Shown one piece after another: positions 4,928 to 21,171 of a stretch of 64,000 nt of DNA. Made by a program: the position numbers and the translations under genes. Origin of the DNA: Candidatus Bathyarchaeota archaeon (GTDB lineage Archaea > Thermoproteota > Bathyarchaeia > Bathyarchaeales > Bathycorpusculaceae); assembly GCA_963775685.1 (NCBI GenBank), contig CAVZJV010000014.1, positions 1,376,001 to 1,440,000 on the forward strand, read 5' to 3'. Positions within the stretch are counted from its first letter, which is position 1. Every line of letters starts with the position of its first letter. The notes beneath the pieces are model-generated. The model was not told the origin of the DNA and did not search any database. It saw nothing but the letters and a program-made list of their open reading frames with translations.

Positions 4928-6461
4928 AAGCATGACCTCAAATAAAGCACTTACCCATATCCGCATTTTAGATACAACCTTAAGAGATGGGGAACAAACC
5001 CCCGGAGTTTCTTTAACAGCTGACGACAAAATTGAGATTGCAGGCCAACTAAGCAAACTAGGCGTTGATGTTATAGAAGCTGGGTTTCCAAGCTCATCTG
5101 AAGGCGAAAAAAAAGTCGTTAAAGACATCGCCAAACTGGGCTTGACCTCGGAAATTTGCGCATTAGCCCGAGCAACAAAGGGTGACATCGATGCAGCCCT
5201 TTCCTGCGACGTTGATTTAATCCATGTTTTCATACCAACCTCACCAGTTCAGATGCAATATGCCGTCAACTTGACCCCCGAACAAGTATTAGCTTCAGCA
5301 GTGGACTCAATTGAATATGTTAAAAAACAAGGCGTAAAATGCGAGTTTTCACCCATGGACGCCACCCGCAGCGAATTGCAGTTCTTAAAAAAAGTCTGCA
5401 AAGCCGCCCAAGACGCAGGCATGGACACCCTAAACGTTCCCGACACCGTCGGTATCATGATTCCCAAAACCACCGCCAAACTAATCGAAGATCTAAAAAC
5501 CGTCGTCACAGTCCCCATAAGCATACACTGCCACGACGACTTCGGTTTGGCAGTTGCAAACTCGCTTGCTGCAGTTGAGGCAGGTGCCGCCCAAGTTCAC
5601 GTTGCTGTTAACGGCTTAGGCGAACGCGCAGGCAACGCTTCACTTGAAGAAGTTGTGATGGCGCTGGAAATTATTTACAAGTATAAAACAGGCGTCAACA
5701 CCCGATTGCTTTACAGCACTTCACGAATGGTTGCTTCCTTAACAGGCATTACTGTTCAGGCTAACAAGGCAATTGTCGGCGAAAACGCGTTTGCCCACGA
5801 ATCGGGCATTCATACACGCGGTGTAACTGAGAAACCATTAACCTTCGAACCCATAAACCCAGAATTGGTCGGTCGTACAAGGAAACTTGTGGCAGGTAAA
5901 CTGGCAGGAACGCGAGGTATCAAAGCTGAACTCGAAGAAATAGGCATCCACCCCACTGAAGAGCAAATCAAAGAAATCGTTCAGCGCGTCAAAGATTTAG
6001 GCGACAAAGGCAAAATGGTGACAGACGCTGATTTGATAGCATTAACATCAGCTGTTATGGGCGAAGTTATAGGGGAAGAAAAAATCGTTGACCTCTGCGA
6101 CATGGCAGTAGTTACAGGCATCAAAGTCATTCCCACCGCTTCCGTTCGCTTAGTTTTAAATGGAAAAGAATACGTTGCTGCTGAAACAGGCGTGGGACCA
6201 GTAGATGCTGTTCTAAAAGCAATCCAAAAATTAACCAGCAGTATAGAAAACATCAGACTAAGCGAATACCGCCTTGAGGCCATAACAGGAGGTTCAAACG
6301 CCGTTGCTGAAGTTGTTATAAAAGTAGAAGATGAAAAAGGCAACATTGTCTCAGCACGAGCAGCCAGAGAAGACATCGTAATGGCAAGCGTCGAAGCAAT
6401 GATAAACGGTATAAACAAACTCTTGCTTAAAAACCACAATAAGCAGGGAAACAAGAAGTGA
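4920..6461 (+). CDS. leuA: 2-isopropylmalate synthase (citramalate synthase paralogue not excluded)
   Basis: DTTLRDGEQ, HCHDDFG, GLGERAGN and HESGIH motifs; C-terminal regulatory domain with GVGPVDA. Confidence 0.88.
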   Translation: MAESMTSNKALTHIRILDTTLRDGEQTPGVSLTADDKIEIAGQLSKLGVDVIEAGFPSSSEGEKKVVKDIAKLGLTSEICALARATKGDIDAALSCDVDLIHVFIPTSPVQMQYAVNLTPEQVLASAVDSIEYVKKQGVKCEFSPMDATRSELQFLKKVCKAAQDAGMDTLNVPDTVGIMIPKTTAKLIEDLKTVVTVPISIHCHDDFGLAVANSLAAVEAGAAQVHVAVNGLGERAGNASLEEVVMALEIIYKYKTGVNTRLLYSTSRMVASLTGITVQANKAIVGENAFAHESGIHTRGVTEKPLTFEPINPELVGRTRKLVAGKLAGTRGIKAELEEIGIHPTEEQIKEIVQRVKDLGDKGKMVTDADLIALTSAVMGEVIGEEKIVDLCDMAVVTGIKVIPTASVRLVLNGKEYVAAETGVGPVDAVLKAIQKLTSSIENIRLSEYRLEAITGGSNAVAEVVIKVEDEKGNIVSARAAREDIVMASVEAMINGINKLLLKNHNKQGNKK

Positions 6462-7273
6462 CAACCGTAGCCTTCCAAGGCGAACCGGGCGCATATAGCG
6501 AATCGGCAGTATACCAGTTCTTTGGCTCAAAAGTTCAAGTTAAACCATGCATGGACTTCCGAGACGTTTTCGAGAGTGTAAAGAAGCATGAAGTTCAAGC
6601 TGGTATGGTACCAGTCGAGAATTCCCTTGAAGGCAGCGTCAATCAAAACTACGACTTATTCTTCAATTATGACCTTAAAGTTTTCGGCGAAGTAATAGTA
6701 AAAATAGCACATTGCCTAATCGTCAACCCTGGAACAAACATAGACCAAATCAGATTAGTGTACTCCCATCCGCAAGCTTTAGCGCAATGCCGAAGTTACT
6801 TGGAAAAATCAAAGTGGGAAATTATCCCAACCTACGACACTGCTGGAAGTGTAAAAATAATCAAGGAACAAAAGCTCATAAACGCCGCAGCCATAGCTAG
6901 CGAGAGAGCAGCCGAAATCTACAGCATGGAAATCCTTGCCAAAGACATTGCAGATAACAAAGAAAACTTCACCCGTTTCTTTGTCTTATCCAAAGAAGAT
7001 TCGGCTCCAACTGGAAAGGATAAAACCTCAGTTATCTTCTCAGCAAAACATGAGCCTGGCTCGCTCTACCATGCACTGGGAGAATTCGCAAAAAGAAAAA
7101 TCAATCTAACCAGAATCGAATCAAGACCAACCAAGAAAACTGCATGGGAATACAACTTTTACCTTGATTTTGAAGGACATAGAACTGAGCCTAAATGCGA
7201 TGAAGCCCTAAAAGCTCTTGAGAAATATGCGATTTTCGTCAAAATCTTGGGCTCATATCCTAAAGCTGTTTAG
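6458..7273 (+). CDS. pheA: Prephenate dehydratase with ACT domain
   Basis: AFQGEPGAYS, PVENSLEG, SHPQALAQC, NFTRF, IESRP and LGSYP motifs; GTG start overlaps the leuA stop. Confidence 0.96.
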   Translation: MTTVAFQGEPGAYSESAVYQFFGSKVQVKPCMDFRDVFESVKKHEVQAGMVPVENSLEGSVNQNYDLFFNYDLKVFGEVIVKIAHCLIVNPGTNIDQIRLVYSHPQALAQCRSYLEKSKWEIIPTYDTAGSVKIIKEQKLINAAAIASERAAEIYSMEILAKDIADNKENFTRFFVLSKEDSAPTGKDKTSVIFSAKHEPGSLYHALGEFAKRKINLTRIESRPTKKTAWEYNFYLDFEGHRTEPKCDEALKALEKYAIFVKILGSYPKAV

Positions 7274-8517: not shown

Positions 8518-9076
8518 TTACCGCTTAATTATCTGTTTGAAGAAATTCTCGATAACCATGTGGCCTTCAGGGTGCGTTTTGTTTCCAATTGTTGTGCGTT
8601 CCGGGTGGAATTGGACGCCGTAGAATGGTTTTGGTTTTATGTCTAACAGCCTCCACTCCGCATGAAACAGAACAGCCAACAAAACAAAACCAGCGCGCTC
8701 AAGGCTGTCTTTTAATATATAATCATAGTGGTTTTCTGCTAATGGTATTGTTTGCCCCTCTTTGAAGCCAGCGAAGATTTCATCTTGTTGAATGACTTTA
8801 ACGTCTTCAAATCGGCTTGAGATTTTCTGGGACAGCGAGCTTACTTCGGCGCCAAATGCCTACAGAGGAGCTCTGGTGGCCGAAGCATATACCAAATATG
8901 GGCAAACTGCGACCCACTGATGATGATAACGTCAGGGTCTTTGCCAAATTTTATAACTTGCATCAACATCTCCAAAAATTGACTACTTTGTACTCGCTAA
9001 ATTTTTCCACTGCCGTAGGCAAATCCGCGCTTACCTCACCTTTGAGAGAACAGTTAACAAGCAGGTTTTTTTTCAT
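8518..9076 (-). pseudogene. Class I glutamine amidotransferase remnant (GuaA-A/TrpG-like)
   Basis: Read by hand, not in the ORF track: MKKNLLVNCSL..., DPDVIIISGS, LPIFGICFGHQ (nucleophile elbow), PFYGVQFHPE...HMVIENFF. Several frameshifts and an apparent internal deletion. Confidence 0.8.
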
Positions 9077-9084
9077 TTGATTCC

Positions 9085-9957
9085 TTATTTTTCTGTGGAT
9101 TCCAGCATTTTATACATGGTTTCATAGGATTCGGCAAAGTCGCAGTCGAATTCTTTAAGCTTCTTTTTTAGCCGCTCCATTCGGTTGACGATTGCTTTCG
9201 TGTCTTTGTTTTTAATTAAGGTGAGCAGTTCTTGGGCTTTAGCCATGAAGGTATCTTCGATTTTGTCCAATTCCTGCAGGTTCGTTTGTACGGCAGCGTA
9301 GAGATCGGGGGTTTCCATCGCCGTTGCTTCTGCCAGCGTGAAGAGCATTCGGTAGGTGGTGCCTGCTACTTTTTTGGTTTCGTGCAAGTTTTTCTGTTCC
9401 AGCAAGGTTTCGCATGCTACTAAGCCTAAAAAGTGTGGCAGTCCCAAAACTACTGACATTAATTCATCATGCTTCTTGGGAGTCATAATGAAAACGTGTG
9501 CTTCTTCCTTCTCGAGCAACTGCTTGAATTTTTCCGCAAACTCATGTTCTTTCGCATTCGTTGGAGTCAAGACATATGCCTTGTGTTTGACGCCGTTACT
9601 TCCCGGACCAAAAACAGGGTGCGTACCCAACACCGTTGCTTCTTTGATGTATTGGTGCATGGTGTTAACGGGTGTTTCCTTTATCGAGGCTATGTCAATG
9701 ACAACCTGTCCTTTATGCAATACTGGGCTGATTGTTTTAACGACCTCTTCGATGGCGTTTATGGATACACAAAGGTAAATTTGGTCGGCCTCTTGGACGG
9801 CTTCTTGAAAGTTCGTGGTTAAATCAACAAGTAAGTCTTTCAGATTTTCGAGTTTCTCTTTTTTTCTATCCGCTAAAATTACATCGTAATCTTTTGAGAG
9901 GAAAAATTTGGCGAACCAAACGCCCATTTTCCCCGCGCCGATTACGGCAACCCTCAT
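9085..9957 (-). CDS. tyrA: Prephenate/arogenate dehydrogenase
   Basis: GAGKMG Rossmann motif, DIASIK, HPVFGP and HDELMSVVLGLPH. Confidence 0.94.
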   Translation of the reverse strand: MRVAVIGAGKMGVWFAKFFLSKDYDVILADRKKEKLENLKDLLVDLTTNFQEAVQEADQIYLCVSINAIEEVVKTISPVLHKGQVVIDIASIKETPVNTMHQYIKEATVLGTHPVFGPGSNGVKHKAYVLTPTNAKEHEFAEKFKQLLEKEEAHVFIMTPKKHDELMSVVLGLPHFLGLVACETLLEQKNLHETKKVAGTTYRMLFTLAEATAMETPDLYAAVQTNLQELDKIEDTFMAKAQELLTLIKNKDTKAIVNRMERLKKKLKEFDCDFAESYETMYKMLESTEK

Positions 9958-11033
9958 TTATTGACCTCGCAGATTTTATTCAGCCCTGTCTCGATTTGGT
10001 CGTCTGGAGCGGTTAGAGAAATGCGAAAGTGTTCAGGGTAGTTACCAAATGATGTGCCTGGAGCAACAGCAACGCCTTTGTCAAGTAGGTCTAGTGTGAA
10101 CTTTTCGCCGTCTAAACCTTCGAGCTTAGGAAACACATAAAATGGCGCGTCGGGTTTAGTGAATTTGAATCCTGCGGCGGAGAGTTTGGTACAGGCTAGG
10201 TCTGCGCGTTGTTTGTATTTTGCTTTGATGGCAGATGCAATTTGCTTGTGAAGTTCTAAGCCTTTAAGGGCGGCGTCCTGAATGAAGACTGGAATGTTGT
10301 TGATGGTGATTTGGTTGAGTTTGGTTATGTTATCTATGACCATTTTGTTTGCTACCAGGTAGCCGATGCGCCAACCAGTCATGGTGAAGGTCTTTGAGAA
10401 ACCGTTGGAGAGGATATGTTTGCATTCACCGTCGTAGTCGAGTATGCTTTTGGTTTTCACAAAGCTGATTGCTCCATAGACTTCGTCGGAGAGGATAGTA
10501 ACTCCTTTCTGGTTAGCTAATTCGACGACGCCGTCGAGAGTTTTGGAGTCCATGACTTTGCTTGTAGGATTGTTTGGGTTGTTGAGAATAATCATTTTTG
10601 TGTCTTTGTCAATTAAGCTCTCAAGCTTGTCGAGGTCAATTTTCCAACCTTCTGCCATTTCCGTCGGCAGCAGCTTGGTTTTCGCGCCAAGGCTCTTTGC
10701 GATTAAATCGTAAGCTGTCCAGTATGGCGTGGGGATGATAACGTTACCTCCGTTTTTGAGCATCAAAAACATCGTGGAGAATATTCCCCATTTAGAACCT
10801 GGCGTTATCACGACGTTTTCTGCTTCAACGCCGTGTACTTCAGCGATTTTCTGCCGTAGCCTAAGCTCACCATAAGAAGAGGCATACTTAGTTTTGCCTG
10901 CCTTCATTGAAGCGTATGCTGCTTCGACGATTTCAGGCGGCGTAGCCATATCTGGGTCACCAAGGTTTAGTCGAATGATTTTTTTTCCTTCACTTTCCAG
11001 TTTAAGGGCTTTCTCGTTTATCTCATAGAGCAT
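9954..11033 (-). CDS. PLP-dependent class I/II aminotransferase, probably the aromatic amino acid aminotransferase
   Basis: NNPNNPT, SDEVY and SKTFTMTGWRIG motifs. Start placed at ATG 11033 behind GGAGAG. Lies between chorismate mutase and tyrA. Confidence 0.88.
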   Translation of the reverse strand: MLYEINEKALKLESEGKKIIRLNLGDPDMATPPEIVEAAYASMKAGKTKYASSYGELRLRQKIAEVHGVEAENVVITPGSKWGIFSTMFLMLKNGGNVIIPTPYWTAYDLIAKSLGAKTKLLPTEMAEGWKIDLDKLESLIDKDTKMIILNNPNNPTSKVMDSKTLDGVVELANQKGVTILSDEVYGAISFVKTKSILDYDGECKHILSNGFSKTFTMTGWRIGYLVANKMVIDNITKLNQITINNIPVFIQDAALKGLELHKQIASAIKAKYKQRADLACTKLSAAGFKFTKPDAPFYVFPKLEGLDGEKFTLDLLDKGVAVAPGTSFGNYPEHFRISLTAPDDQIETGLNKICEVNK

Positions 11034-11061
11034 ACAGTTTGGACTCTCCGTTAGGAGCGCT

Positions 11062-11322
11062 TTATTCTTGAACGGCAATGCACATATTAACTATTTCGCG
11101 GTAAACCGCTTCTACTTGACTAGAATTAAGACCTAATTGGGAGGTTTTGTCTTTTACGCGCTTGTAAACATCATTTTCTCTAGACTTATCTCGAATGGGT
11201 TTACCCTGTTTTTTCTTGGCGGCCCCGATTGCTTTGCAAATCTTTACCCGTTCGCAGAGGGCAATTAGAATTTGGTTGTCGATTTCATCAACCTGTTTTC
11301 TTAGCAAGGGGATTTCGTTCAT
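11062..11322 (-). CDS. aroQ: Chorismate mutase (AroQ class)
   Basis: LRKQVDEIDNQILIALCER...IRDKSRE pattern; 86 aa; operon context. Confidence 0.92.
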   Translation of the reverse strand: MNEIPLLRKQVDEIDNQILIALCERVKICKAIGAAKKKQGKPIRDKSRENDVYKRVKDKTSQLGLNSSQVEAVYREIVNMCIAVQE

Positions 11323-11324
11323 GG

Positions 11325-12431
11325 TTAGTGCTCCTTGAGGACTTTTGGTATGTACCCAGCGCGGATGAGGTGGTCAGCTAAGGTTATGGCGGTTGCTGCT
11401 TCGATGGCGAGCACAGCTTTTGGAACCACACAAGGGTCGTGTCTACCTTTAACGCTTAGAGCGGAATTTTCCATCGTGCACATGTTAACGGTTTTCTGTT
11501 CCTTGGAAATGGAGGGTGTGGGTTTTATCGCTACTCTGATCAGGATTGGCATTCCGCTTGACAATCCGCCCAAGATGCCGCCTGCGTTCTCGGTTGAAGT
11601 GGCAACCTTGCCTTTTTTGATAAGGAAGGCGTCGTTGTTCTCTGACCCCCGCAACTTCGCAGCGTCAAAGCCAGCACCGAACTCGACACCTTTCACTGCA
11701 GGGACAGCAAACATCGCCTTTGCTAAATCTGCATCCAATGAGTCAAACGACGGCTCACCAATTCCAACAGGCATGTTGAGCGCTGCACATTCCACTATAC
11801 CGCCTAAACTGTCCCCTTCTTTTTTAGCTTCAACAATGGCTTCCTCCATCTTTCCTGCGCAAACTAAGTCAGGGCACCGAGTTGCAGCTAAATATCGATT
11901 TTTGCGGATTTCCGAAGTTCTAAACTTTCTATCAGTCTTGACGTTACCGATGGCTAAGGTGTATGCCAAAACATCAATGTTGTATCTTCCGAGCAGTTTT
12001 TTGGCTATTGTGCCAGCCATTATGAGTGCAACTGTGACTCTTCCTGAGAAGCGCCCTCCGCCACGGTGGTCGTTAAAGCCTCCGTATTTAATTCGCGCCG
12101 GATAATCAGAGTGCCCAGGTCTTGGCAAATCCTTTATTGCCTCATAATCGCTTGGCTGAGTTTCCTTATTCTCCACCATCAAGGCGATTGGAGCCCCAGT
12201 GGTGAATCCGTTGAAAAATCCACTTAGGATTTTGGCAACGTCTTTCTCGACTCGCTCAGAAACAATCTTGGACTCCGCTGGAATTCTGCGATCAAGGTCC
12301 TCCTGAAAATCAGCTTCCGAAAGCGGCAAGCCTGCTGGGCAGCCATCCACAACTACTCCGATTACTTTGCCATGGCTCTCCCCAAACGTGGCAACTGTGA
12401 ATTCTTTACCTATCGAATTTCCCGCCAACAA
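11325..12431 (-). CDS. aroC: Chorismate synthase
   Basis: TFGESHG, PRPGHSD, GGGRFSGR, KPTPSI and GRHDPC motifs. Confidence 0.97.
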   Translation of the reverse strand: MLAGNSIGKEFTVATFGESHGKVIGVVVDGCPAGLPLSEADFQEDLDRRIPAESKIVSERVEKDVAKILSGFFNGFTTGAPIALMVENKETQPSDYEAIKDLPRPGHSDYPARIKYGGFNDHRGGGRFSGRVTVALIMAGTIAKKLLGRYNIDVLAYTLAIGNVKTDRKFRTSEIRKNRYLAATRCPDLVCAGKMEEAIVEAKKEGDSLGGIVECAALNMPVGIGEPSFDSLDADLAKAMFAVPAVKGVEFGAGFDAAKLRGSENNDAFLIKKGKVATSTENAGGILGGLSSGMPILIRVAIKPTPSISKEQKTVNMCTMENSALSVKGRHDPCVVPKAVLAIEAATAITLADHLIRAGYIPKVLKEH

Positions 12432-13701
12432 CGTTAGCTCCTATTTGTCTTAGATGAGTGAAGAACTGCGGATAAGACTTTCTGACGCACTCTGCGTTTT
12501 GAATTGTGGTTTCTCCTTCGGCGCCTAAAGCGGCGATTGTGCATGCCATGGCGATTCGATGGTCGTTGTGTGGATCGATGGTTACTCCATGCAAGCGGTT
12601 GCTGCCCTCGATGAGTAAGCCGTCGTTTTCTAAGCCGATTTGAGCGCCCATCTTTGAGAGTTCAGCAAATAACGATTGGAGCCTATCTGACTCCTTGAAC
12701 CTAAGCCTTTGTGCGCCGAAAATGTGAGAAGTGCCTTTTGCGTAGCATGCGAGAGCGGCGATGGCTGGAACAAGGTCAGGAATGTTTTTGGCATCTACTT
12801 CTACGGGTGTAAGTGGAGTTCCTGAACCTTCAATTTCAACGTTGTCCACGCAGACTTTTCCGTTGACGCCCATGTGCTTTAAGGTGCCTATAATCGCTTT
12901 GTCTCCCTGAACGGTCTCGTAGTCAAGGTTGCTAATTTGAACATTCGAGGTAGTTATTGCTGCAGCGGCTAAGAGAAAAGCAGCGGAGGAGAAATCGCCT
13001 GGAACTCTGCCATCTTGGGGTGTGTAGGTTTGGTTCGCTGGGATATGAATGTGGTTTTCATGGGCAGGCACCCTAATTCCATGGTGAACAAGCACTGCCT
13101 CGGTCATTTTAACGTAATCTGCAGATTCCAACGGCGAAGTCAGCATTATTTCCGTGTCCACTTCGGCCATTGGACAAGCAAACATCAAGCCAGAAATAAA
13201 CTGTGAACTCACATCGCCCGCAACGGAAGTCTCGCCGCCAACAATGCCGCCGCCCTCCACAAAAACCGCGTCTTTGTCACCAAGTTTTCCAACGCGCACT
13301 TTGGCGCCGAGTTCTTTGAGGCTAGCTAAAAGTGGTTCCACAGGTCGCTTCTCAATAGAGCCCCTAAACACCAAAGTAGAAGAACCATCTGCCAGCGCAG
13401 CTACGGGAATCATGAAACGCAATGTTGCCCCTGACTCTCTGCAGTCAATTGGTTCTTTTGCGCTCTTAAGCGCTGTGCCTTCGATTGTCCAGCAACCTTC
13501 CGCAGTCTTGACTTTTGCCCCTAAAGCAGTGACTGCCCCAAGCGTGGCTTCGGTATCATCTGACAAAAGAGGATTAGAAACTTTTGAAACTCCATGGGAA
13601 AGTGCAGCGGCTATTACCATTCGTTGAGTATAAGACTTAGATGACGGCGCACAAACTTGCCCGCTTAACTTTTCAGTTTTTTTAATTGTTACATCTGTCA
13701 T
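12406..13701 (-). CDS. aroA: 3-phosphoshikimate 1-carboxyvinyltransferase (EPSP synthase)
   Basis: PSSKSYTQR, SSQFISG, RLRFKESDR, DHRIAM and KSYPQF motifs. Confidence 0.97.
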   Translation of the reverse strand: MTDVTIKKTEKLSGQVCAPSSKSYTQRMVIAAALSHGVSKVSNPLLSDDTEATLGAVTALGAKVKTAEGCWTIEGTALKSAKEPIDCRESGATLRFMIPVAALADGSSTLVFRGSIEKRPVEPLLASLKELGAKVRVGKLGDKDAVFVEGGGIVGGETSVAGDVSSQFISGLMFACPMAEVDTEIMLTSPLESADYVKMTEAVLVHHGIRVPAHENHIHIPANQTYTPQDGRVPGDFSSAAFLLAAAAITTSNVQISNLDYETVQGDKAIIGTLKHMGVNGKVCVDNVEIEGSGTPLTPVEVDAKNIPDLVPAIAALACYAKGTSHIFGAQRLRFKESDRLQSLFAELSKMGAQIGLENDGLLIEGSNRLHGVTIDPHNDHRIAMACTIAALGAEGETTIQNAECVRKSYPQFFTHLRQIGANVVGGKFDR

Positions 13702-13703
13702 TG

Positions 13704-14576
13704 TTAGAGCACCTTTGCTTTTTCACTGTTCAACTGTGCCTGAATTATTTCGCCGTCATACCTTTCCAAAGCAGCCTTCACTGCATCTAACTTGTCAGTT
13801 GGAACTACTGCGGAAACAGCAGGTCCTTTGCCGCAAAGCCCAGTCGCTACGGCTCCAGCAGCCAACGCATCTATCGCGATTGTGGTGTTGAGGTTTGAGG
13901 CTGAAGAGTAGATTAAACCGTTAAGCGTTAATGCCTCCCAAACTTTTCCTTCCAAAGCCTTGTCGAATGCGATTTGTACGAGCGGTTTAACAGTTTTGAG
14001 CCTGTTCACATTTGAGTCAGCCGTGTAGGCTTTTTGGGGTGGAACATGAAACAACACTGTTAAATCCTTAGGTAAGGGTAGCTGTTTGATGATTTCACGT
14101 TTGAAGTTATCGGTAATTACTATGCCGCCAAAATAGGATGCACACGCATCATCAAAAGCGCCAGTAACTGTGACCTTTGAATCAAAAGCAGCATCGACAC
14201 CCAACTTTACAATTTCCAAATCATCAAGAGGTTTGCCAAGTGCCGCCGTTGTTGCAAGTGCGGTGGCGTTTGCTGCTACGCTGCTGCTTTTAAGTCCTTT
14301 AGCGATTGGGATGTTTGATAGGGTTTTTATTTTTGCGCCAAAACTTTTGTCTAAACCAAACCTTTGCAGAACTCTTGCCGCGGTTTTTTCTATTAGGAGC
14401 GTGCTTTCTTTTGGGTCTGAAACTATCTCAGCCCTAATAACGCCTAGTTCATCCATTAAATTAACTTCAGCTCTGGTCCACAAATCAACCCCAAACGCTG
14501 CACCCTTACCCAGCGCAATCGCGTTCACGATGGTTGCAGCCCCATGAGCAATCGCTACACCTCTACCCGTTGCCAC
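13704..14576 (-). CDS. aroK: Archaeal shikimate kinase (GHMP family)
   Basis: GAATIVNAIA, PIAKGLKSSS and TVTGAFDDA motifs. Confidence 0.94.
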   Translation of the reverse strand: MATGRGVAIAHGAATIVNAIALGKGAAFGVDLWTRAEVNLMDELGVIRAEIVSDPKESTLLIEKTAARVLQRFGLDKSFGAKIKTLSNIPIAKGLKSSSVAANATALATTAALGKPLDDLEIVKLGVDAAFDSKVTVTGAFDDACASYFGGIVITDNFKREIIKQLPLPKDLTVLFHVPPQKAYTADSNVNRLKTVKPLVQIAFDKALEGKVWEALTLNGLIYSSASNLNTTIAIDALAAGAVATGLCGKGPAVSAVVPTDKLDAVKAALERYDGEIIQAQLNSEKAKVL

Positions 14577-14579
14577 AGT

Positions 14580-15437
14580 TTACACCTTCATCAAATAATT
14601 AAGCGCCGCCTGCCTCATAACTTCAACTGGAGCAGACTTACCTGTCCAAAGTTCAAACGACGCTGCACCTTGATAAATCAACATCTCAACCCCGCTGACC
14701 ACCTTAGCTCCCGCAGCTTTCGCCTCATTAACAAGTTTGGTCTCAAGCGGATTGTATACTATATCCATCACAGACAAATCCGGTCTTAAAAGTTTAGGAT
14801 TTACAAGGCTTTCGTCTGCTTTTGGTTTCATCCCAATTGAAGTAGCATTTATGAGAATGTCAGAGTCTTGGAGGTTCTGTTGGATTTCTTTTGGTGAAAG
14901 GGAACCTGCAACTATTTTTTTGTTCGCAGTCTTTTCAAGCAGTCTGGCTAATCCTTGAGCTTGTTTTACGGTTCGGTTCAGGACCGCGAGTTCATCGGCT
15001 TCTTTAGCCATCGTGTACGCTATGGCTCTTGCAGCTCCGCCTGCACCCAGCAACAGAACCTTTCTGCCCTTCGGCTCCACTCCATTTTCTCTTAGAGCTT
15101 TTAGGGCGCCTACGCCATCTGTGTTGAAGCCGAAAAGTTTGCTATCCTTATTTAGGATTGTATTGACCGAATTTATGATTTGAGCAGATAGGTCTGTTCG
15201 GTCTAAATACTTCAACACTGTACTTTTATGCGGCATAGTTACGTTTAAGCCCCGTAGGTTTAGGGCGCGCATGCCATTTACTGCGTTTTCCACTGCATTT
15301 AGCTTTACTTTGAAAGCTAAAAATGCATAGTCAAGGTTGAGAGCGTTAAAGGCTGCATTGTGTATAATGGGGCTCAAGGTATGCTCTATTGGGTCACCGA
15401 TGACTCCGCAAACCCTAGTTTTCCCCGTAATAGGCAT
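14580..15437 (-). CDS. aroE: Shikimate dehydrogenase
   Basis: HTLSP, NVTMPHK, NTDGVG, GAGGAARA, NATSIG and DIVYNP motifs. Confidence 0.97.
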   Translation of the reverse strand: MPITGKTRVCGVIGDPIEHTLSPIIHNAAFNALNLDYAFLAFKVKLNAVENAVNGMRALNLRGLNVTMPHKSTVLKYLDRTDLSAQIINSVNTILNKDSKLFGFNTDGVGALKALRENGVEPKGRKVLLLGAGGAARAIAYTMAKEADELAVLNRTVKQAQGLARLLEKTANKKIVAGSLSPKEIQQNLQDSDILINATSIGMKPKADESLVNPKLLRPDLSVMDIVYNPLETKLVNEAKAAGAKVVSGVEMLIYQGAASFELWTGKSAPVEVMRQAALNYLMKV

Positions 15438-16120
15438 TATTTTATCCCCAAAAGTCCATAAGCAGTGCGCATTTCGGTTATGCTCATCTGCCCAGCCGCG
15501 GTTTCACTGTCAGGCTCAACCGAGGCGAAAGTGAAGAAAGCGCCAAATGCAGGTGAAAGCAACCTTGAGATTTTGCCTTGATCGCCCATGCAGAAGCAAA
15601 CCAGCTTTGCCTTGGCTGAAGCAAAGGAAACAAAGTTCAGAATAGGCAGGTTGTCTTCAACTTGTTTTGCTGTGAGCACGATTTTGCAGACGCTCGCCCC
15701 GCTGGCAATCTCCTCGTCAAGGATCTTTTCCATGGTAGAAACTGCTAAAAGTCCATCATAATTATGATAAGAAACGATGGGTTTTGCCCCTAGAGCTCGT
15801 AGTTTTCCAATTGTTTCGTCCCGTTTAGGGCTGGAAAAATCAACATCCACATATTCGAAGCCATTTTTGGCCGCATCAATAAGGGTCTGTTGACGTTCAA
15901 TTTCGGTTCCTGAAAAGTAACCTTTTTCGTTTTTGAGTTTGTTTGTAGCGATAAAGGGCAGTTTTGTGCTTTTGGCGAAGTCTTGTAGGTTTCGTGATTC
16001 TTCGAGGTAATCGAGACGAACTTCTACGAGGTCTGCTTGGGAACTCTCTGCCTTCTCAATGAGCTTTAGCGCTTCCGCCATGTTTTTTGGGAGAATCGAA
16101 ACACAGATTCTCACAGTCAC
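15437..16120 (-). CDS. aroD: 3-dehydroquinate dehydratase type I
   Basis: EVRLD, SYHNY, KIV and CMGDQGKISRL motifs; position in the operon. Confidence 0.92.
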   Translation of the reverse strand: MTVRICVSILPKNMAEALKLIEKAESSQADLVEVRLDYLEESRNLQDFAKSTKLPFIATNKLKNEKGYFSGTEIERQQTLIDAAKNGFEYVDVDFSSPKRDETIGKLRALGAKPIVSYHNYDGLLAVSTMEKILDEEIASGASVCKIVLTAKQVEDNLPILNFVSFASAKAKLVCFCMGDQGKISRLLSPAFGAFFTFASVEPDSETAAGQMSITEMRTAYGLLGIK

Positions 16121-17157
16121 TTTTCAATCACCGTTTCTTCAGGCACAGATATGCCGAAGTGTCTTCCTCCCTTCGCAGCTAAATGCACAAGAACTTCATC
16201 GTTGGGTTTGAGTTCGGTAACTGGTTTTGAGCCTTTAGACGTGACTATGCGTATGGTTTCTGCATTCTGCAAGATAGTTTTAATTTTGGTGCCGTCGGCC
16301 TCGGCTTCGATGAGGATGAGTGGACGGAACTCGATTTTGGATCTACCCACGTTTGTGATTCGGACATTACCTTCTCGACTAACGATTAGAACTTCGTCAC
16401 CAGCTTTGAGTTCAGAGAGGTAGCGTGTACCCTGAATGGAGGTTAAGGTGTACTGAGATGCTGGTCCAGCGTTCACTCGGAAAGGCCTGGATTGCACGTA
16501 GGGGTTCTCGTTAACTTCAGCCTCAACAAGGAAGAACCCTGCGGATTGGCATCCGACAAGCATCCCTTCACCTGGAACCATCAAATCAACAGTGTCTACA
16601 CAGACGCGTGCACCTGAGCCGATGGGTTTAATGGACAAGATTTTGGCTGTGGTAATCGACATTTTGGGCATTTGATTCTTGACGAGCTTGATGGTTTTTT
16701 CCAGCTCAGCTACGTTTCTGGTCTTTAGCAAAACACCGTCTGTGCCCAATTCAAGAGCTTCCAAAACCAACTTAGCATCCTCAGCCGTGGTCACCTCTGC
16801 GATTAGGGTGCTTTTTCCTCTGCCTTTGGCTATGAGGTTTTCAAGCGGAATCACTCGCCAATCTTGACAGTTTATTATGACATAGTCAACGCCAAGTTCA
16901 GCGGCTTTGGCTGCCCTGTTTTCGTCTTCTTTACCTTGGATTATTACTTTTAAGGCTGTTTTTTTGCCCTCTACCTTTAGCTGGGCAATTTTTTTCTCGC
17001 TCAAGTCAGTGAGAAAAATAATTTCCATTTTGCCTTGGCGGTTGCTGGCTTGGTCGCCATCCAAGATCGCGTCTGCGTTTTCATGGGCAAGGCTAAGTAA
17101 ACCTTCCTTTTCTTGAGCGGAAGCATTTTGTGGAATTTCGAGCCAGAGTTCTTTCAA
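16117..17157 (-). CDS. aroB': 3-dehydroquinate synthase II (archaeal AroB')
   Basis: DWRVIPLENLIA, RVCVDT, RPFRVNAG, YLSELKAG, LQNAETI and GRHFG motifs. Confidence 0.95.
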   Translation of the reverse strand: MKELWLEIPQNASAQEKEGLLSLAHENADAILDGDQASNRQGKMEIIFLTDLSEKKIAQLKVEGKKTALKVIIQGKEDENRAAKAAELGVDYVIINCQDWRVIPLENLIAKGRGKSTLIAEVTTAEDAKLVLEALELGTDGVLLKTRNVAELEKTIKLVKNQMPKMSITTAKILSIKPIGSGARVCVDTVDLMVPGEGMLVGCQSAGFFLVEAEVNENPYVQSRPFRVNAGPASQYTLTSIQGTRYLSELKAGDEVLIVSREGNVRITNVGRSKIEFRPLILIEAEADGTKIKTILQNAETIRIVTSKGSKPVTELKPNDEVLVHLAAKGGRHFGISVPEETVIEK

Positions 17158-17945
17158 TATTTTTCACCAAAAATCTTTAGCGCTTGCTCAACAGATGCAC
17201 CTTTGTGGACAATGGCAGAGAGCGCTCTTGAAATTTGTGTTGGATTGTCGCATTGGAACATGTTACGTCCAATGGAAAGCCCTGCTGCACCTGCTTCCAA
17301 GGCGTCGCTGGTGGTTTGAAGCACTTCCTCTAGGGAATTGCATTTTGGTCCACCTGCAATAACAACTGGGATTGGGCAACTTTCGATGACTGCTTTGAAA
17401 GTTTCGATGCTTCCTGTGTAGTTTGTTTTGATTATGTCTGCGCCAAGTTCTGCGCCGATTCTCGCTGCATGCGCCACCAATTCGGGTGAATGTTCGTTTG
17501 GGATTTTTGGTCCACGCGGGTACATCATCGCTAAGAGAGGAACACCAAAGGCTTCGCATTCTTCGGCGACTTTGCCTAGGTTTTGTAGCATTTTATCTTC
17601 GTCTTGAGCGCCGACGTTGACATGAACGGATACTGCGTCTGCGCCGATGCGTATGGCTTCTTGCACGCTGCATACTTGGACCTTGCCGTTTACGTTGGGG
17701 CTAAGGTTTGACATGCCAGATAACATTACGATTAAGCCTGCGTCTCCGGTGTCGACTCGTTTGGCGATGCCTTTGTGGACAAGGATGGCATCAACTCCAC
17801 CTTTCACAAGCTGGTTGGTTATGGTTTGCATGTTAGTTATGCCTTGGATGGGCCCAACTGTTACACCATGATCCATAGGTACAATTACTGTGCGGTTGTC
17901 TTGCTGCATGATTTTTTTTAGTCTGCGGGTTTTGCCTTCATTCAT
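17154..17945 (-). CDS. aroA': 2-amino-3,7-dideoxy-D-threo-hept-6-ulosonate (ADH) synthase, DhnA-type aldolase
   Basis: VPMDHG, MMYPRG, ELGADIIKT, IAGGPK and GRN motifs; adjacent to DHQ synthase II. Confidence 0.92.
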   Translation of the reverse strand: MNEGKTRRLKKIMQQDNRTVIVPMDHGVTVGPIQGITNMQTITNQLVKGGVDAILVHKGIAKRVDTGDAGLIVMLSGMSNLSPNVNGKVQVCSVQEAIRIGADAVSVHVNVGAQDEDKMLQNLGKVAEECEAFGVPLLAMMYPRGPKIPNEHSPELVAHAARIGAELGADIIKTNYTGSIETFKAVIESCPIPVVIAGGPKCNSLEEVLQTTSDALEAGAAGLSIGRNMFQCDNPTQISRALSAIVHKGASVEQALKIFGEKY

Positions 17946-17957
17946 GTCTTTTCCACT

Positions 17958-19202
17958 CTAATGTTGTTTAAGTGAGTTTTTAATTAACTTTAATGCTTTC
18001 TCTTTCTCATTCCAATCTACAAACAGCAAAATGCTCGACGTAATAGTTAGGATGCCAGAGATGTTTATGCCGTTAAGGCGTAAATCCTCACTGATTTTGC
18101 CGATGATGCCATGCGTTTCCTCCAAGCCCACACCGCTGGTTTTGATGAAGACAAGGTCCTTTTTAACTGCCATAGCTATGGTTTCTTCGTTGCCGATAGT
18201 TATATTGTGGATTTGGTTGAAGAGGACATCGATATTTTTCACCTGCGGCACATAGAGAATGATTGAGTTTGTGTTCATAGACATGCCCAATAACATCGAG
18301 TTTTCCTTAACTCTCTCAACCATCTCGGTGATAACTTTAGTATTAGCAGACATACCGTTTCCGATAACGGTGATTTCCGCCACAGGGGTAGGATGAGCAA
18401 TTTCCGCGTCAAGTTCGGTGCCTAATCCACCGGTGATGATTGTCCCTGCACGACTCAAATCGCCATGAGCATTGCTGATGACTTTAACATCGATATCTTT
18501 TGGCTTGTATTTGAGAGCTTTACTGTGAATAAATTTTGCACCTGAATCTGCTAAGCCAACAAGCGTATTTACGTTGATTGTTGGGAGAAGTTTGGGCGAA
18601 GCAATTATTTTCGGGTCGCCAGACATTATGCCATCTGCATTCGTTACCAGCACAACTTGGTTTGCATTTAAGCCCTGTGCCAGCAAGAACGCAGTAGTGT
18701 CGCTTCCGCCTCTGCCAAGGGTAGTAATTTTGCCATCTTTCGTTTTGCCCACGAATCCAGCTATGACCGGTACGGTTCCTGCCTCAACAAGCGGAAGGAT
18801 GCATTCCTTAATATTTTTCTCGCATTCCTTGACAAGGGGGTTGGCGTTCTGGAACGAGTCATCAGTGATTATTGGCCACTTACTGTCCATGGGGTCAAAG
18901 TAACAAGCATCAACACCATTGTTCCGAAGAGCAGTCGCAAAGATTCGTACACTTGTGCGTTCACCCATCGACAAAATGTCATCTAACTCCTGTTTAGCTA
19001 ATTTTCCGTTCGAAGTGTTCTTTGCGGTAATCAATAGCACATCGGTTGTTTTCCCCATGGCTGAAACTGCTACAGCGATTTTTGTACCTTTTTTGGCTTC
19101 ATTCACCACTGCCTTGACCGCTTTTAGAAGTCTTTCGTGATCAGATAGGCTGGAGCCGCCAAATTTAACGACAATGGTTTGGTTAGAGGAATGTTTTGCC
19201 AT
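17958..19202 (-). CDS. Aspartate kinase, first gene of the aromatic operon, with divergent ACT domains
   Basis: VVKFGGSS, VSAMGKTTD, SMGER and TTLGRGGSD motifs. Start placed at ATG 19202 behind GGGTG; ATG 19217 is the alternative. Confidence 0.9.
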   Translation of the reverse strand: MAKHSSNQTIVVKFGGSSLSDHERLLKAVKAVVNEAKKGTKIAVAVSAMGKTTDVLLITAKNTSNGKLAKQELDDILSMGERTSVRIFATALRNNGVDACYFDPMDSKWPIITDDSFQNANPLVKECEKNIKECILPLVEAGTVPVIAGFVGKTKDGKITTLGRGGSDTTAFLLAQGLNANQVVLVTNADGIMSGDPKIIASPKLLPTINVNTLVGLADSGAKFIHSKALKYKPKDIDVKVISNAHGDLSRAGTIITGGLGTELDAEIAHPTPVAEITVIGNGMSANTKVITEMVERVKENSMLLGMSMNTNSIILYVPQVKNIDVLFNQIHNITIGNEETIAMAVKKDLVFIKTSGVGLEETHGIIGKISEDLRLNGINISGILTITSSILLFVDWNEKEKALKLIKNSLKQH

Positions 19203-19222
19203 ATGTTTTACACCCATGTTTT

Positions 19223-19260
19223 GCCCAGAACTTTTCTTAAAAATTTTTTCAGTTCTGGGC
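19223..19260 (-). promoter_or_regulatory. Leader RNA hairpin, 10-bp perfect stem
   Basis: GCCCAGAACT (N18, A/T-rich) AGTTCTGGGC. It starts at the base after the leader stop codon and ends 20 nt before the kinase ATG at 19202. Confidence 0.75.
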
Positions 19261-19347
19261 TTAAGGAAAATGGTAATAATAAAAGCAGTAATCGAAGCTC
19301 TGGAACGGCGCCGCATTGCCTGAGACTATGTTTTTTGCATTGAACAT
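19261..19347 (-). CDS. Phe/Tyr-rich leader peptide (candidate attenuator peptide), 28 aa
   Basis: ATG TTC AAT...TTC GAT TAC TGC TTT TAT TAT TAC CAT TTT CCT TAA gives MFNAKNIVSGNAAPFQSFDYCFYYYHFP. Eight of the last 14 codons are Phe or Tyr. It lies between the promoter and the aromatic operon. Confidence 0.78.
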   Translation of the reverse strand: MFNAKNIVSGNAAPFQSFDYCFYYYHFP

Positions 19348-19384
19348 TGTGCTTCGAAACCTGTTGAATGCTTCACCTCACAAA

Positions 19385-19400
19385 AAATATAAGCGTTTCG
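19385..19400 (-). promoter_or_regulatory. BRE/TATA promoter of the aromatic leader and operon
   Basis: Minus strand reads CGAAACGC-TTATATTT, ending 37 nt before the leader ATG. Confidence 0.6.
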
Positions 19401-19515
19401 GATTTGGACTCACCAAATATAGGATCACTCTATCTCTTGAAAAAGCCAATAGCCAATAAATTCAAAATCTCAACAACTATGATTATGTTATTTTTTGTAA
19501 TTTAATTGAAGTAGC

Positions 19516-21171
19516 TTAACTTTGAGGGACGGCTTCAGTGCTCTTTTCACCCGCGGAGGATACAATGGCTGGAGGCAAGATTTTTCTTTGGATAAGGGCT
19601 TTTACTGCTTCTGAAAGAACGTTACACGCCTGTTTTCTTACCTCTGCGGAGTTGTCTACTTCCTTGTTTGCAATGGACGTCTCTAAATTCTGCATCTTAC
19701 CAATATTTGCCCGTTTGTTTCTCTCATAATCTTCATGGAGTTTTTGTAGTTCGGTACCTGAATTCTGCTCTGCTAACGCCAAGCTCCTTCTTGCATCATC
19801 TAATTTCTTGATAATTTCTATTTGTCTTTCTTCTTCGGCTACTTTCTTGAGGAAGTGAAGGCTACTTATTTTGGTTTGCCGAATTTGAGCAAGCTCTTCT
19901 TCAATTTACATACATTCTTGGTAAAGAAATCAATAGCAGAGTCTCTTTTTTCTTTGAGCTCGCTCGTCTGCGCTTCATACTCAGCGTCAATGTCCCCAAC
20001 TTTTCCTGAATCAATAGAAGAATTACCAACTGCCAAAGCCAACCTCTTCTCAGCAGCATTCAGTTTCTGAGTAAGCTCGGCTTGTTTTTGTTCTTTTGCC
20101 CTTTTCTTGAGTGGATGCCGATAACTCGTTTTTATCTGCTCCACCTCGGCAAGTTCTTCTTTTAAAATGTGCACGTTTCTGAACAAGTAATCTATAGCGC
20201 TCTTTCCTCTAACTACAAAGTCTTTAGTTTGGGCAGCATATCCAGCGTCAATCTCGCCTAGTAAATATCTATTCTCTACAAGTGTCCTTGCTGAGACTTC
20301 AATTTCTGCTTCGTTTGTCAGTCGCTTGGCTAGTTCATCTTCGATTTCGCTGAAAATGTGGTTACATGCTTCGGTAAAAGTTTCGTCTGACCCTATGACG
20401 TCGCTTGATTCAAAGGATAGAATAATCTGCCTAACGTTAACCATCCAATCGTCAAAGTATTTGCTAACAGGCGACTGCTCAAAGACTTCCCCCCCAAGCA
20501 TTTCTAAATAATTCAAAGTCTCAGCACTAATTGCCTCAATCTTCGCGTTCTGCTCCCCTAAGTCAATGGGCGCTCGGGCTTTCTTGCGGTATTTCTTCTT
20601 CTATCTCTTCAGTGACAATAGATTCTGGTAAGTTAACTGGAATTTCAACTGAAATAACTAAAAGGGGTTCGGGTGCTACAGGTGCTTGAAGTTTTGGAAT
20701 TTCCGCAATCGCTTGAATCTCTTTTGGCGTCTCAACTTTATGTTGGTTTTGGACCATTAAGCTATTAAGTTTTGGAATAATGTCCTCAACTACTATCATC
20801 AAGAGATCGCGGTTTTCGCTTTCATTTAACTCCCAAACTTCTCGACGACCACCCTCAAAGGTTAAAGTGAGGTGCCCTGTGAGGTCGATGTATGCTTGGG
20901 AGGCTTCCTTCAATTTGAATGGAAGCACAGATGTGGAAACCGAAATTGAAGAAAACATCGGCGCCAAATACCTCAGCGACTCAAAAAATTTAGCCACCAA
21001 AACCTTCTCCTCAGACAATAACTTCCCGATCTGCTCAATATCCTCTTCTACAAACGCGAAGGTCTCAGCGATTTCTTGGACACTGATTGACTTTCCGCTT
21101 ACAACATGTGGACTTATGACTAAAGCATCTGCTGGAGATGTTGTTACCGGCACCTGAGTCATGACATTCAA
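19516..21171 (-). pseudogene. Roughly 550-aa coiled-coil protein split by two frameshifts
   Basis: Three tandem ORFs (20563-21171, 19866-20516, 19516-19782) join by frame changes. An internal repeat (AIDY/FF...LKK...KL...LALA.NS) spans the second break. Confidence 0.65.

Follow-up and report, generated by a model that had tools for sequence, protein, structure and literature searches.

The leader region upstream of the aromatic amino acid operon

The DNA analysed here, henceforth the window, is a stretch of 64,000 nucleotides from a Candidatus Bathyarchaeota archaeon (assembly GCA_963775685.1, contig CAVZJV010000014.1), i.e. C14:1376001-1440000 in our numbering of a genome that was scanned as 3.06 Mb in 14 contigs. 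Its minus strand carries an 11-gene operon for aromatic amino acid biosynthesis, headed by an aspartate-kinase-like gene, and between the promoter and this first gene lies a short upstream open reading frame (uORF) that is rich in Phe and Tyr codons. The subject of this analysis is that leader and its putative role as a sensor of the aromatic amino acid supply. Coordinates are window positions, and the features of the locus, including two predicted RNA helices termed P1 and P2, are the following:

19385-19400, minus strand: B recognition element (BRE, CGAAAC) and TATA box (TTATATTT) of the leader promoter, together CGAAAC GCTTATATTTT, as read from the sequence
19360-19364, minus strand: predicted transcription start at about 19362, a C/A step around 24-26 nt past the TATA box, placed by its distance from the TATA box only
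19351-19361, minus strand: R1, the 5' arm of P1 (GGTTTCGAAGC), in the short 5' untranslated region (UTR) beside the uORF start
19261-19347, minus strand: leader ORF (uORF) of 28 codons plus TAA (ATG 19347-19345, TAA 19263-19261)
19292-19299, minus strand: R2, the 3' arm of P1 (AGCTTCGA), codons 17-19 of the uORF (Ser-Phe-Asp)
19267-19296, minus strand: run of aromatic codons F18, Y20, F22, Y23, Y24, Y25 and F27, proposed as the sensor and left unpaired between P1 and P2 by the minimum free energy (MFE) fold
19251-19260, minus strand: 5' arm of P2 (GCCCAGAACT), beginning at the base after the stop codon
19233-19250, minus strand: A/U-rich P2 loop of 18 nt, with a T5 run at 19243-19239
19223-19232, minus strand: 3' arm of P2 (AGTTCTGGGC), forming a perfect 10-bp hairpin with the 5' arm
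19211-19215, minus strand: Shine-Dalgarno-like GGGTG, 7 nt past P2 and 8 nt ahead of the kinase start
17958-19202, minus strand: aspartate-kinase-like first gene (AA_kinase and ACT domains by Pfam)
9085-17945, minus strand: ten further operon genes, from the ORF list and Pfam

The start of the first gene was placed at ATG 19202 rather than at the 19316 given by the ORF finder, because relatives align from residue 1-8 onwards and many of them have stop codons just upstream. The uORF encodes the peptide MFNAKNIVSGNAAPFQSFDYCFYYYHFP, in which eight of the final 14 codons are Phe or Tyr, TTT TAT TAT TAC among them. Both the position of this ORF between promoter (19400-19385) and first gene and its codon content are as described in the original prediction, which had read the locus from the letters alone as a candidate ribosome-mediated attenuator. 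That prediction had also attached meaning to the complete lack of Trp codons in the uORF, as matching an operon without intact trp genes. This part is not supported: in relatives the lack of Trp codons does not hold, several of their leaders carrying a Trp residue (e.g. L011, L041, L056 and L067), and an intact-looking trpEGD..BA cluster is present on another contig.

In all aligned relatives the order is likewise promoter, uORF, first gene. Most positions of the BRE/TATA block are kept in at least 90 % of the sequences in the same-genus alignment (A1), and a 46-sequence alignment (A3) shows little or no variation in the promoter core GAAA.(G)CTT.TAT. The uORF start codon is invariant in A1 and nearly so in A3. 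A conserved block, CAGGTTCGAAGC, starts at the predicted transcription start in both alignments, and the block CAGGTTTCGAAGC lies around 25 nt after BRE/TATA and ahead of ATG 19347.

Conservation of the aromatic uORF among relatives

Within its own genome the composition of the uORF is suggestive, not decisive: when 7801 short ORFs were ranked by their best single-window enrichment, it fell into a tied group starting at about the 24th place. An ATG-initiated ORF with at least eight aromatic codons among the last 14 is found in 0 of the genome's 1400 other upstream regions, while one region reaches seven and eight reach at least six. Synonymous codons of both kinds are used for Phe as well as for Tyr, at approximately the genome ratios.

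The decisive evidence comes from the relatives. An aromatic uORF occupies the same place in all same-genus genomes fetched, i.e. in 30 of 30 loci and in five of five additional genomes (35/35). Across the 30 loci these uORFs have 24-29 codons, a freely variable N-terminal half and the C-terminal motif SFDY(Y/G)FYYY.., and in its longer form, SFDY.FYYY..(F/Y)(P/T/N), this motif is well kept as a peptide sequence among the members of the family. Three further families of the order, whose kinase orthologues are 50-60 % identical, have aromatic uORFs of different sequence, e.g. MNSQSMTTLTYSSMFYSFSYYFYN and ..PFFGSFGYFGYRG. Paralogous aspartate kinases located behind dapB (five loci) or lysA (two Hadarchaeota loci) have no such ORF.

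An aspartate kinase of the aro type (E<=1e-90) was detected in 79 of the 251 Bathyarchaeia genomes sampled, these orthologues heading the aro cluster. Sixty extra upstream regions were pooled with the earlier loci to give 120 distinct Bathyarchaeia leaders, and 1397 upstream regions of the window's own genome, treated by the identical 'best short ORF' procedure, served as controls. Scored by aromatic codons per 12-codon window, with the reservation that the genomes are related and the leader counts hence are not independent trials, the two sets compare as follows:

At least 5 aromatic codons: 97 of 120 aro leaders, 191 of 1397 controls
At least 7 aromatic codons: 81 of 120 aro leaders, 12 of 1397 controls
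At least 8 aromatic codons: 61 of 120 aro leaders, 2 of 1397 controls

The 97 leaders of the first line are referred to below as the aromatic leaders. Windows with at least seven aromatic codons, built from unrelated nucleotide and peptide sequences, occur in at least eight families (f1, f7, f14, f19, f27, f30, f32 and f34), and the enrichment is weaker in f5, f11, f16 and f37. The peptides differ from family to family (SFDYYFYYY, PYYYYYYYCFF, FFDFFYYYFYFE, FGYFYFYYFK and others), their common feature being the aromatic richness of the last dozen or so codons.

The leader is not confined to Bathyarchaeia. 3-Dehydroquinate (DHQ) synthase II was located in 112 of 221 genomes of the phylum, and 18 loci of other classes were fetched. 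Ten of these 18 have at least five aromatic codons per 12, four of them (L193, L198, L199 and L202) with eight. The short ORFs concerned come from families f43, f45, f46, f51, f56 and f60 and end 39-88 nt ahead of the N-terminal motif of a first gene resembling either aspartate kinase or aspartate-semialdehyde dehydrogenase. Three f39 loci have neither such a first gene nor a leader, and no aromatic leader was detected by the script at L194, L196 and L203. At L197 the kinase motif was missed by the script, and a GTG-started ORF with five aromatic codons was seen by eye. In two f60 loci, L201 and L202 (genomes G377 and G413), the aromatic uORF heads a gene similar to aspartate-semialdehyde dehydrogenase (..GATGMVG..) and not a kinase. 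Therefore, the leader tracks the operon head and not one particular enzyme. Taken together, the uORF and its Phe/Tyr bias recur in relatives of the same genus, in the pooled Bathyarchaeia set and in other classes, so that the conservation test which the original prediction had set for itself is passed.

Other conserved short ORFs upstream of the kinase were noted in f26 (L142-L148, L152, L158, L161 and L164) and in f35, the latter in g97 (L149-L151, L160, L162 and L163) and g71 (L177, L179, L182 and L185). They read MGD.LFGDGVY.., ..FGGHIYGD.YW.. or MGGHLYWH(K/R)PAPETL.QV, often contain a single Phe, Tyr and Trp each, and lack a strong hairpin after the stop (z around 0); they may represent a different leader design.

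Reading-frame constraint

The R2 heptamer AGCTTCG provides an anchor within the uORF. In the 43 leaders that could be anchored by this pattern, the distance from ATG to AGCTTCG is 42, 45 or 48 nt and that from AGCTTCG to the stop codon is 30, 33, 36 or 39 nt, i.e. both are divisible by three in 43 of 43. Of the 97 aromatic leaders, 68 have stops across the uORF span in one of the alternative frames and 89 in the other.

Considering that length changes come in threes, that synonymous codons are both used and that only the aromatic composition is shared across families, the conservation of composition and not of sequence favours sensing at the level of codons, i.e. of tRNA charging. A specific arrest peptide or a stand-alone micropeptide would fit this pattern less well.

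Two helices flank the aromatic codons

In the MFE fold of the window leader, P1 is followed by a 26-nt single-stranded aromatic linker and then by P2. P1 ties the start region of the uORF to its own codons 17-19, R1 in the block form GGTT(T)CGAAGC pairing with R2. It is the top-ranking duplex between 5' UTR and uORF in 46 of 46 leaders, with energies of -11 to -18 kcal/mol. Since R1 was positioned inconsistently by MAFFT, pairs were counted with a custom anchored script, according to which 51-54 of 54 distinct sequences maintain each of the seven core pairs. Where only one side has changed, G-U pairing is mostly retained (11 cases of A-U to G-U at one pair, eight of U-A to U-G at another, a few elsewhere), and a single compensatory change, C-G to U-A in L040, comes at the price of a Ser-to-Asn replacement. 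A few rows are broken, L038 among them. The extension of P1 differs by clade, e.g. GCTATA with TATAGC. The AGCTTCG core of R2 is invariant in A1 at the nucleotide level, synonymous sites included; the codons for Ser-Phe-Asp are thus frozen because of the P1 pairing.

In f14 (L154-L156) the hairpin abutting the stop is formed by GCTTCGAAACC and GGTTTCGAAGC, the 3' arm being identical to the R1 block at 19351-19361 of the window, and GGTTCGAA also resembles the tRNA T-arm; this may reflect chance or a shared partner.

P2 is the sole helix predicted by RNAalifold over the whole leader. Pairing is retained in 94.6 % of 460 cells (46 sequences); the helix is mostly invariant within the family, and changes in well-aligned rows are mostly G-U compatible. 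Three pairs have changed on both sides, a value reached by four of 500 shuffles. A stronger argument for P2 comes from other families, in which the very same position is taken by a hairpin of entirely different sequence. Measured from the end of the stop codon, the first paired base falls between -3 and +2 nt in 91 of the 97 aromatic leaders, and the post-uORF hairpin has a median energy of -17.2 kcal/mol and a median z of -3.4 against shuffles, with z<-2 in 77 of 97.

Downstream of P2, the G of the Shine-Dalgarno-like GGGTG is kept in at least 90 % of A1 at four of five positions, and example leaders from several families show a hairpin that ends 2-10 nt before a similar element (GGAGG, GGGG or GGTG). 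In this genome GGAG, GAGG and AGGT are enriched 2.4-3.2-fold before predicted starts; the 3' end of the 16S rRNA was not found in it by a motif search.

A run of T5-7 in the P2 loop is common to most of the genus and absent, with all else kept, from the subclade of L037, L038, L040, L041, L054 and L056 in A3. Of the 97 aromatic leaders, 49 have at least five consecutive T between uORF stop and gene start and 48 lack such a run; in the window, the only such run sits inside the P2 loop and none follows P2. Genome-wide, T>=5 is found within 100 nt after 45.5 % of 938 genes compared with 17.2 % inside genes, with no marked hairpin before these runs, and oligo-T runs are probably termination signals in this genome. 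PMC8716108 and PMC7515710 likewise describe oligo-T termination for other archaea. A few families (f14 and f11) have a hairpin followed by a U-run, resembling a bacterial terminator. By inspection, the loop T-run was set aside as a core effector, given the subclade that lacks it, and so was an internal promoter in the A/T-rich loop, the loops of other families being GC-rich.

A proposed model for sensing and read-out

Judged from sequence and its conservation, the most probable explanation, to which we assign a probability of roughly 0.75, is that the uORF acts in cis as a leader peptide through which the aromatic operon responds to the availability of charged tRNA-Phe and tRNA-Tyr. Its conservation across the class and beyond makes it a strong candidate for what would be the first leader peptide in Archaea known to sense amino acids.

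If the sensor is read correctly, we tentatively prefer a translational read-out, in which queuing ribosomes open P1 and P2. With charged Phe and Tyr tRNAs plentiful, a single ribosome would pass through the uORF and P1 would close behind it, locking the uORF start against further rounds. During such fast decoding P2 would remain folded beside the ribosome-binding site of the kinase and keep its translation low, and the untranslated kinase RNA would expose the 11-gene transcript to factor-dependent polarity. With slow decoding of the aromatic codons, ribosomes would instead queue on the uORF. A ribosome footprint approximates the distance of 30-39 nt between R2 and the stop codon, and a ribosome on most of the aromatic codons would cover R2, keeping P1 open, and leave P2 folded. 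A trailing ribosome covering R2 would thus prevent P1 from closing, while the leading one would be slow to leave the final aromatic codon, which precedes the stop by two codons here and by one to three in other families, and the terminal Pro-stop; from there it would keep the base of P2 unwound. This would open the A/U-rich stretch upstream of the Shine-Dalgarno element, and translation of the first gene would in turn shield the long transcript from polarity of the FttA type. Two elements of this scheme have a counterpart in PMC12548453, which, in the passages bearing on it, attributes archaeal polarity to FttA and describes, as a basis of translational coupling by RNA unfolding, hairpins whose end lies closely ahead of the next start.

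A second read-out, again provided that the sensor reading is right, is premature termination at the T-run of the P2 loop or by FttA, modulated by the position of the ribosome; we consider this rather unlikely. With regard to the original prediction, the conserved, in-frame Phe/Tyr leader ORF stands, and the terminator/antiterminator layout of bacterial attenuators was searched for and not found in this genus. The sensing part therefore fits the word attenuator, and the read-out may be translational rather than transcriptional.

Several observations, however, weigh against this explanation. No mutually exclusive alternative pairing was found, and P1 and P2 coexist in the MFE fold. Pairing of the 5' UTR with the region downstream of the stop is no better than in shuffles (z around 0), and duplexes between the U-rich aromatic linker and the kinase start region have a median z of 0.2, with z<-2 in only two of 97 leaders. 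The Shine-Dalgarno element is not base-paired in P2 but lies 7 nt outside it, and its computed accessibility hardly depends on where the ribosome is placed: across 84 leaders the median difference between a ribosome stalled on the aromatic run and one at the stop is 0.01, above 0.2 in nine and below -0.2 in six, and in L001 the unpaired probability is 0.50 in both states. Any inhibition by P2 would therefore have to be steric. Furthermore, a stall on most of the aromatic codons leaves P2 folded, and only the last aromatic codon and the stop reach it. The sign of the response, i.e. starvation switching the operon on, is assumed from physiological logic, and simple coupling models predict the opposite. 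P1 and P2 are mostly invariant within the family, so that covariation is modest (three both-sided pairs in P2, one in P1), and the palindrome TTCGAA occurs in both R1 and R2, which could be protein-binding DNA sites. In families f26 and f35 the conserved short peptides are of another kind, with only 2-5 aromatic codons, and a strong hairpin is missing. Finally, analogous leaders were seen in this genome neither upstream of trpE nor upstream of hisG or the ilvC region, so that the Trp, His and branched-chain counterparts which the original prediction had proposed to look for did not materialize.

A few leaders offer pairings of another kind. Inspection of the folds shows that part of the uORF is complementary to the hairpin's 5' arm in L066 (PIYB01000007.1), through the segment GTTTCTTCAGC with its two Phe codons, and in L199 and L200 (genomes G355 and G376), through GGTCCC, the last two uORF codons. 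Such complementarity may permit a three-region switch that is nearer to the bacterial scheme. In L001, the uORF segment CCAGAGCTT can pair with the 3' arm of P2; this candidate was rejected, as the pairing is not conserved in A3. A scan of 19000-19600 on both strands gave no Rfam match at E<=0.1, the only hit being a chance-level one to an unrelated small RNA model (E 0.65), and in a scan of 9000-21000 for sigma-70 promoters and hairpin terminators, which is unsuited to archaea, counts were no higher than in shuffles.

Regarding the picture as a whole, the odds seem to us slightly better than even that the aromatic leader and its stop-abutting hairpin constitute an ancient system spread across much of the Thermoproteota (Bathyarchaeia and at least six families of other classes). 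It would be the first archaeal case of ribosome-mediated amino acid sensing to be described, with a read-out unlike the terminator/antiterminator scheme: queuing would keep P1 open and unwind the translation-gating P2, and FttA-type polarity would relay the signal to the operon.

Operon and genome context

By Pfam, the kinase is followed by genes for a DeoC-type aldolase, DHQ synthase II, type I dehydroquinase (DHquinase I), shikimate dehydrogenase and a GHMP kinase, the remaining genes encoding 5-enolpyruvylshikimate-3-phosphate (EPSP) synthase, chorismate synthase, chorismate mutase, an aminotransferase and prephenate dehydrogenase. The products of the operon are thus chorismate, prephenate and the Tyr branch. 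We take the DeoC-type aldolase and DHQ synthase II to be the pair of the archaeal aromatic route from aspartate semialdehyde, and an aspartate kinase heading the operon is therefore metabolically sensible. PMC4162585 is consistent with this route.

The head kinase is distinct from the two other amino-acid-kinase matches in the genome, at window positions 37573-38568 (plus strand) and at G000:C14:681234-681686 (32 % and 35 % identity). A dedicated kinase at the operon head suggests a supply of aspartate semialdehyde that is specific to the aromatic pathway. In the classes outside Bathyarchaeia the cluster order is kinase, a gene of around 350 aa, aldolase and DHQ synthase II. Prephenate dehydratase (PDT and ACT domains) is located outside the leader-controlled operon, at the end of a separate row of plus-strand genes (window positions 6458-7270, plus strand), and the sequence ahead of this row, its translation read by eye, resembles the end of an acetolactate synthase small subunit.

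Elsewhere in the genome, the trp genes form a row of six co-oriented ORFs at G000:C1:16243-22620 (476-aa to 268-aa products), with a Glycos_transf_3 match and a TATA-like element. The only short ORF ahead of this row encodes MLLNYKEA and contains no Trp codons; therefore, the row has no Trp leader. The short ORFs most skewed in composition (Cys-, Arg- or His-rich) precede an antitoxin-like gene, two genes without Pfam match, a P-type ATPase gene and an ABCE1-like gene. Around 150 nt before the last of these (Fer4_RLI and ABC_tran), at G000:C14:2219449-2219540 (plus strand), a very Arg-rich (MGRRRRRRMGRRRMVN) and a very Glu-rich short frame overlap, and this pair represents the strongest composition outliers of the genome scan.

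Alternative explanations

Among the rivals, arrest by the nascent peptide survives best, and even so we regard it as improbable. The aromatic C-terminus in the exit tunnel, together with free Phe or Tyr, would hold the ribosome at or near the stop, where the 5' arm of P2 would be masked and the operon switched off when the amino acids are abundant. The C-terminal motif that is well kept within the family would suit such a peptide, as would the many leaders that end in Pro-stop, a context in which termination is slow in bacteria, and P2 would be melted by a ribosome at the stop, given that stop and helix adjoin in 91 of 97 leaders. Across families, however, what is shared is aromatic composition and no peptide motif, and both synonymous codons are freely used, as codon or tRNA sensing expects. 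Arrest peptides known to us are not enriched in the amino acid that they sense, and in the genus we found no partner structure that would switch the operon off when P2 is open.

A further explanation, which we consider very improbable as a replacement for the sensor, treats the frame as incidental to an RNA or DNA element, i.e. a protein or ligand binds P1/P2, or a transcription factor binds the two TTCGAA-containing sites, and the ORF is no sensor. R1 does lie at the predicted transcription start, a usual site of archaeal repressor binding, and shares its palindrome with R2. Moreover, AGCTTCG, TTTTATTAT and the arms of P2 are kept at synonymous sites and in sequence across two families, and P2 occurs only once in the genome. 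An incidental frame would nevertheless leave the conserved start codon and the multiples of three in 43 of 43 leaders unaccounted for, as well as a stop codon that stays at the hairpin base even when the hairpin sequence is entirely different, and an aromatic enrichment that recurs with unrelated nucleotides in more than ten families plus other classes. In addition, where only one side of a P1 or P2 pair has changed, a G-U pair mostly results, which is relevant to RNA of this strand and not to DNA sites, and the Rfam scan gave no match at its threshold. Regardless, an element of this kind is compatible with tRNA sensing by the leader, and both can hold together.

Least probable is a free-standing aromatic micropeptide of 24-29 residues (e.g. 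membrane- or enzyme-associated) that merely neighbours the operon: the ORF is conserved, looks translated and keeps its C-terminal motif in the family, and such small proteins are common in archaeal ribosome profiling (Ribo-seq) studies according to passages of PMC11456600 and PMC10117724, but it is always placed after the promoter and 45-90 nt ahead of the first aro gene, in every lineage and even where the first enzyme differs, it never accompanies paralogous aspartate kinases, its N-terminal half evolves freely, and beyond aromatic content there is no sequence conservation between families.

Comparison with known leader peptides

Attenuation by leader peptides is a textbook example of how transcription and translation are coupled. 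Within the reach of a search of the full-text literature, in which subscription journals are thinly covered, descriptions of it were found in Bacteria only, and no amino-acid-sensing leader peptide was found described in any archaeon. Two archaeal Ribo-seq papers treat upstream ORFs only generically in the parts that concern them (PMC11456600, PMC10117724). If tRNA sensing by the aromatic leader is true, Archaea too would read tRNA charging via the speed of the ribosome on a leader, and the control of the 11-gene route from aspartate to the aromatic amino acids in uncultured Bathyarchaeia would be explained. The conserved example would offer a concrete, mutable sequence on which the interplay of archaeal ribosome, RNA polymerase and FttA at a regulatory site can be tested, and its simple rule, i.e. 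an aromatic uORF, a hairpin at the stop and a Shine-Dalgarno element, is searchable in other archaeal operons and for other amino acids.

The arginine attenuator peptide and TnaC are likewise short uORFs governing a metabolic gene. Both have around 24 codons and act through a ribosome at or near the stop, with TnaC sensing tryptophan and the fungal peptide arginine. They depend on a specific conserved peptide, whereas in the archaeal leaders composition, and not sequence, is kept across families.

In the ermC and cat leaders and in secM-secA, a ribosome held near the end of the uORF reshapes a hairpin at the ribosome-binding site of the next gene, and here the likeness is to the read-out that we consider most likely for the aromatic leader. 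The trigger proposed for the latter is hungry Phe and Tyr codons, not an antibiotic or a secretion signal. In contrast to ermC and secM, the Shine-Dalgarno element adjoins the hairpin and is not inside it, and the computed accessibility is unsupportive.

Mycobacterial polycysteine short ORFs are described, in the part of bioRxiv 10.1101/834739 relevant here, as leaderless, amino-acid-responsive attenuators of operon expression. They resemble the aromatic leader in being short uORFs rich in the codons of one amino acid and in standing outside the classical enterobacterial scheme. They differ in being bacterial, leaderless and specific for cysteine, while the present leader is archaeal and aromatic, with two conserved helices, one of them the hairpin that abuts the stop.

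With the pheL-pheA, trpL, hisL and thrL leaders of Enterobacteria, the archaeal leader shares a short ORF between promoter and operon, a run of codons for the end product, conservation, and overlapping or flanking RNA helices. The trp leader transcript is also reported to sequester the ribosome-binding site of its own leader, as P1 would do here. The differences lie in the archaeal host with its BRE/TATA promoter, in the mutually exclusive 1:2, 2:3 and 3:4 pairings, for which no equivalent was found, and in the hairpin, which starts at the stop codon, is followed by no U-run in the window and matches no leader family in Rfam. In this respect, PMC8716108 and PMC11616081 assign archaeal termination to oligo-T and FttA and not to hairpin terminators. 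By analogy, the enterobacterial pheL, trpL and hisL leaders would nevertheless be the nearest relatives in function, and the conserved aromatic uORFs suggest that attenuation by leader peptides extends to a further domain of life, where its RNA architecture differs and its distribution, unnoticed until now, is wide.

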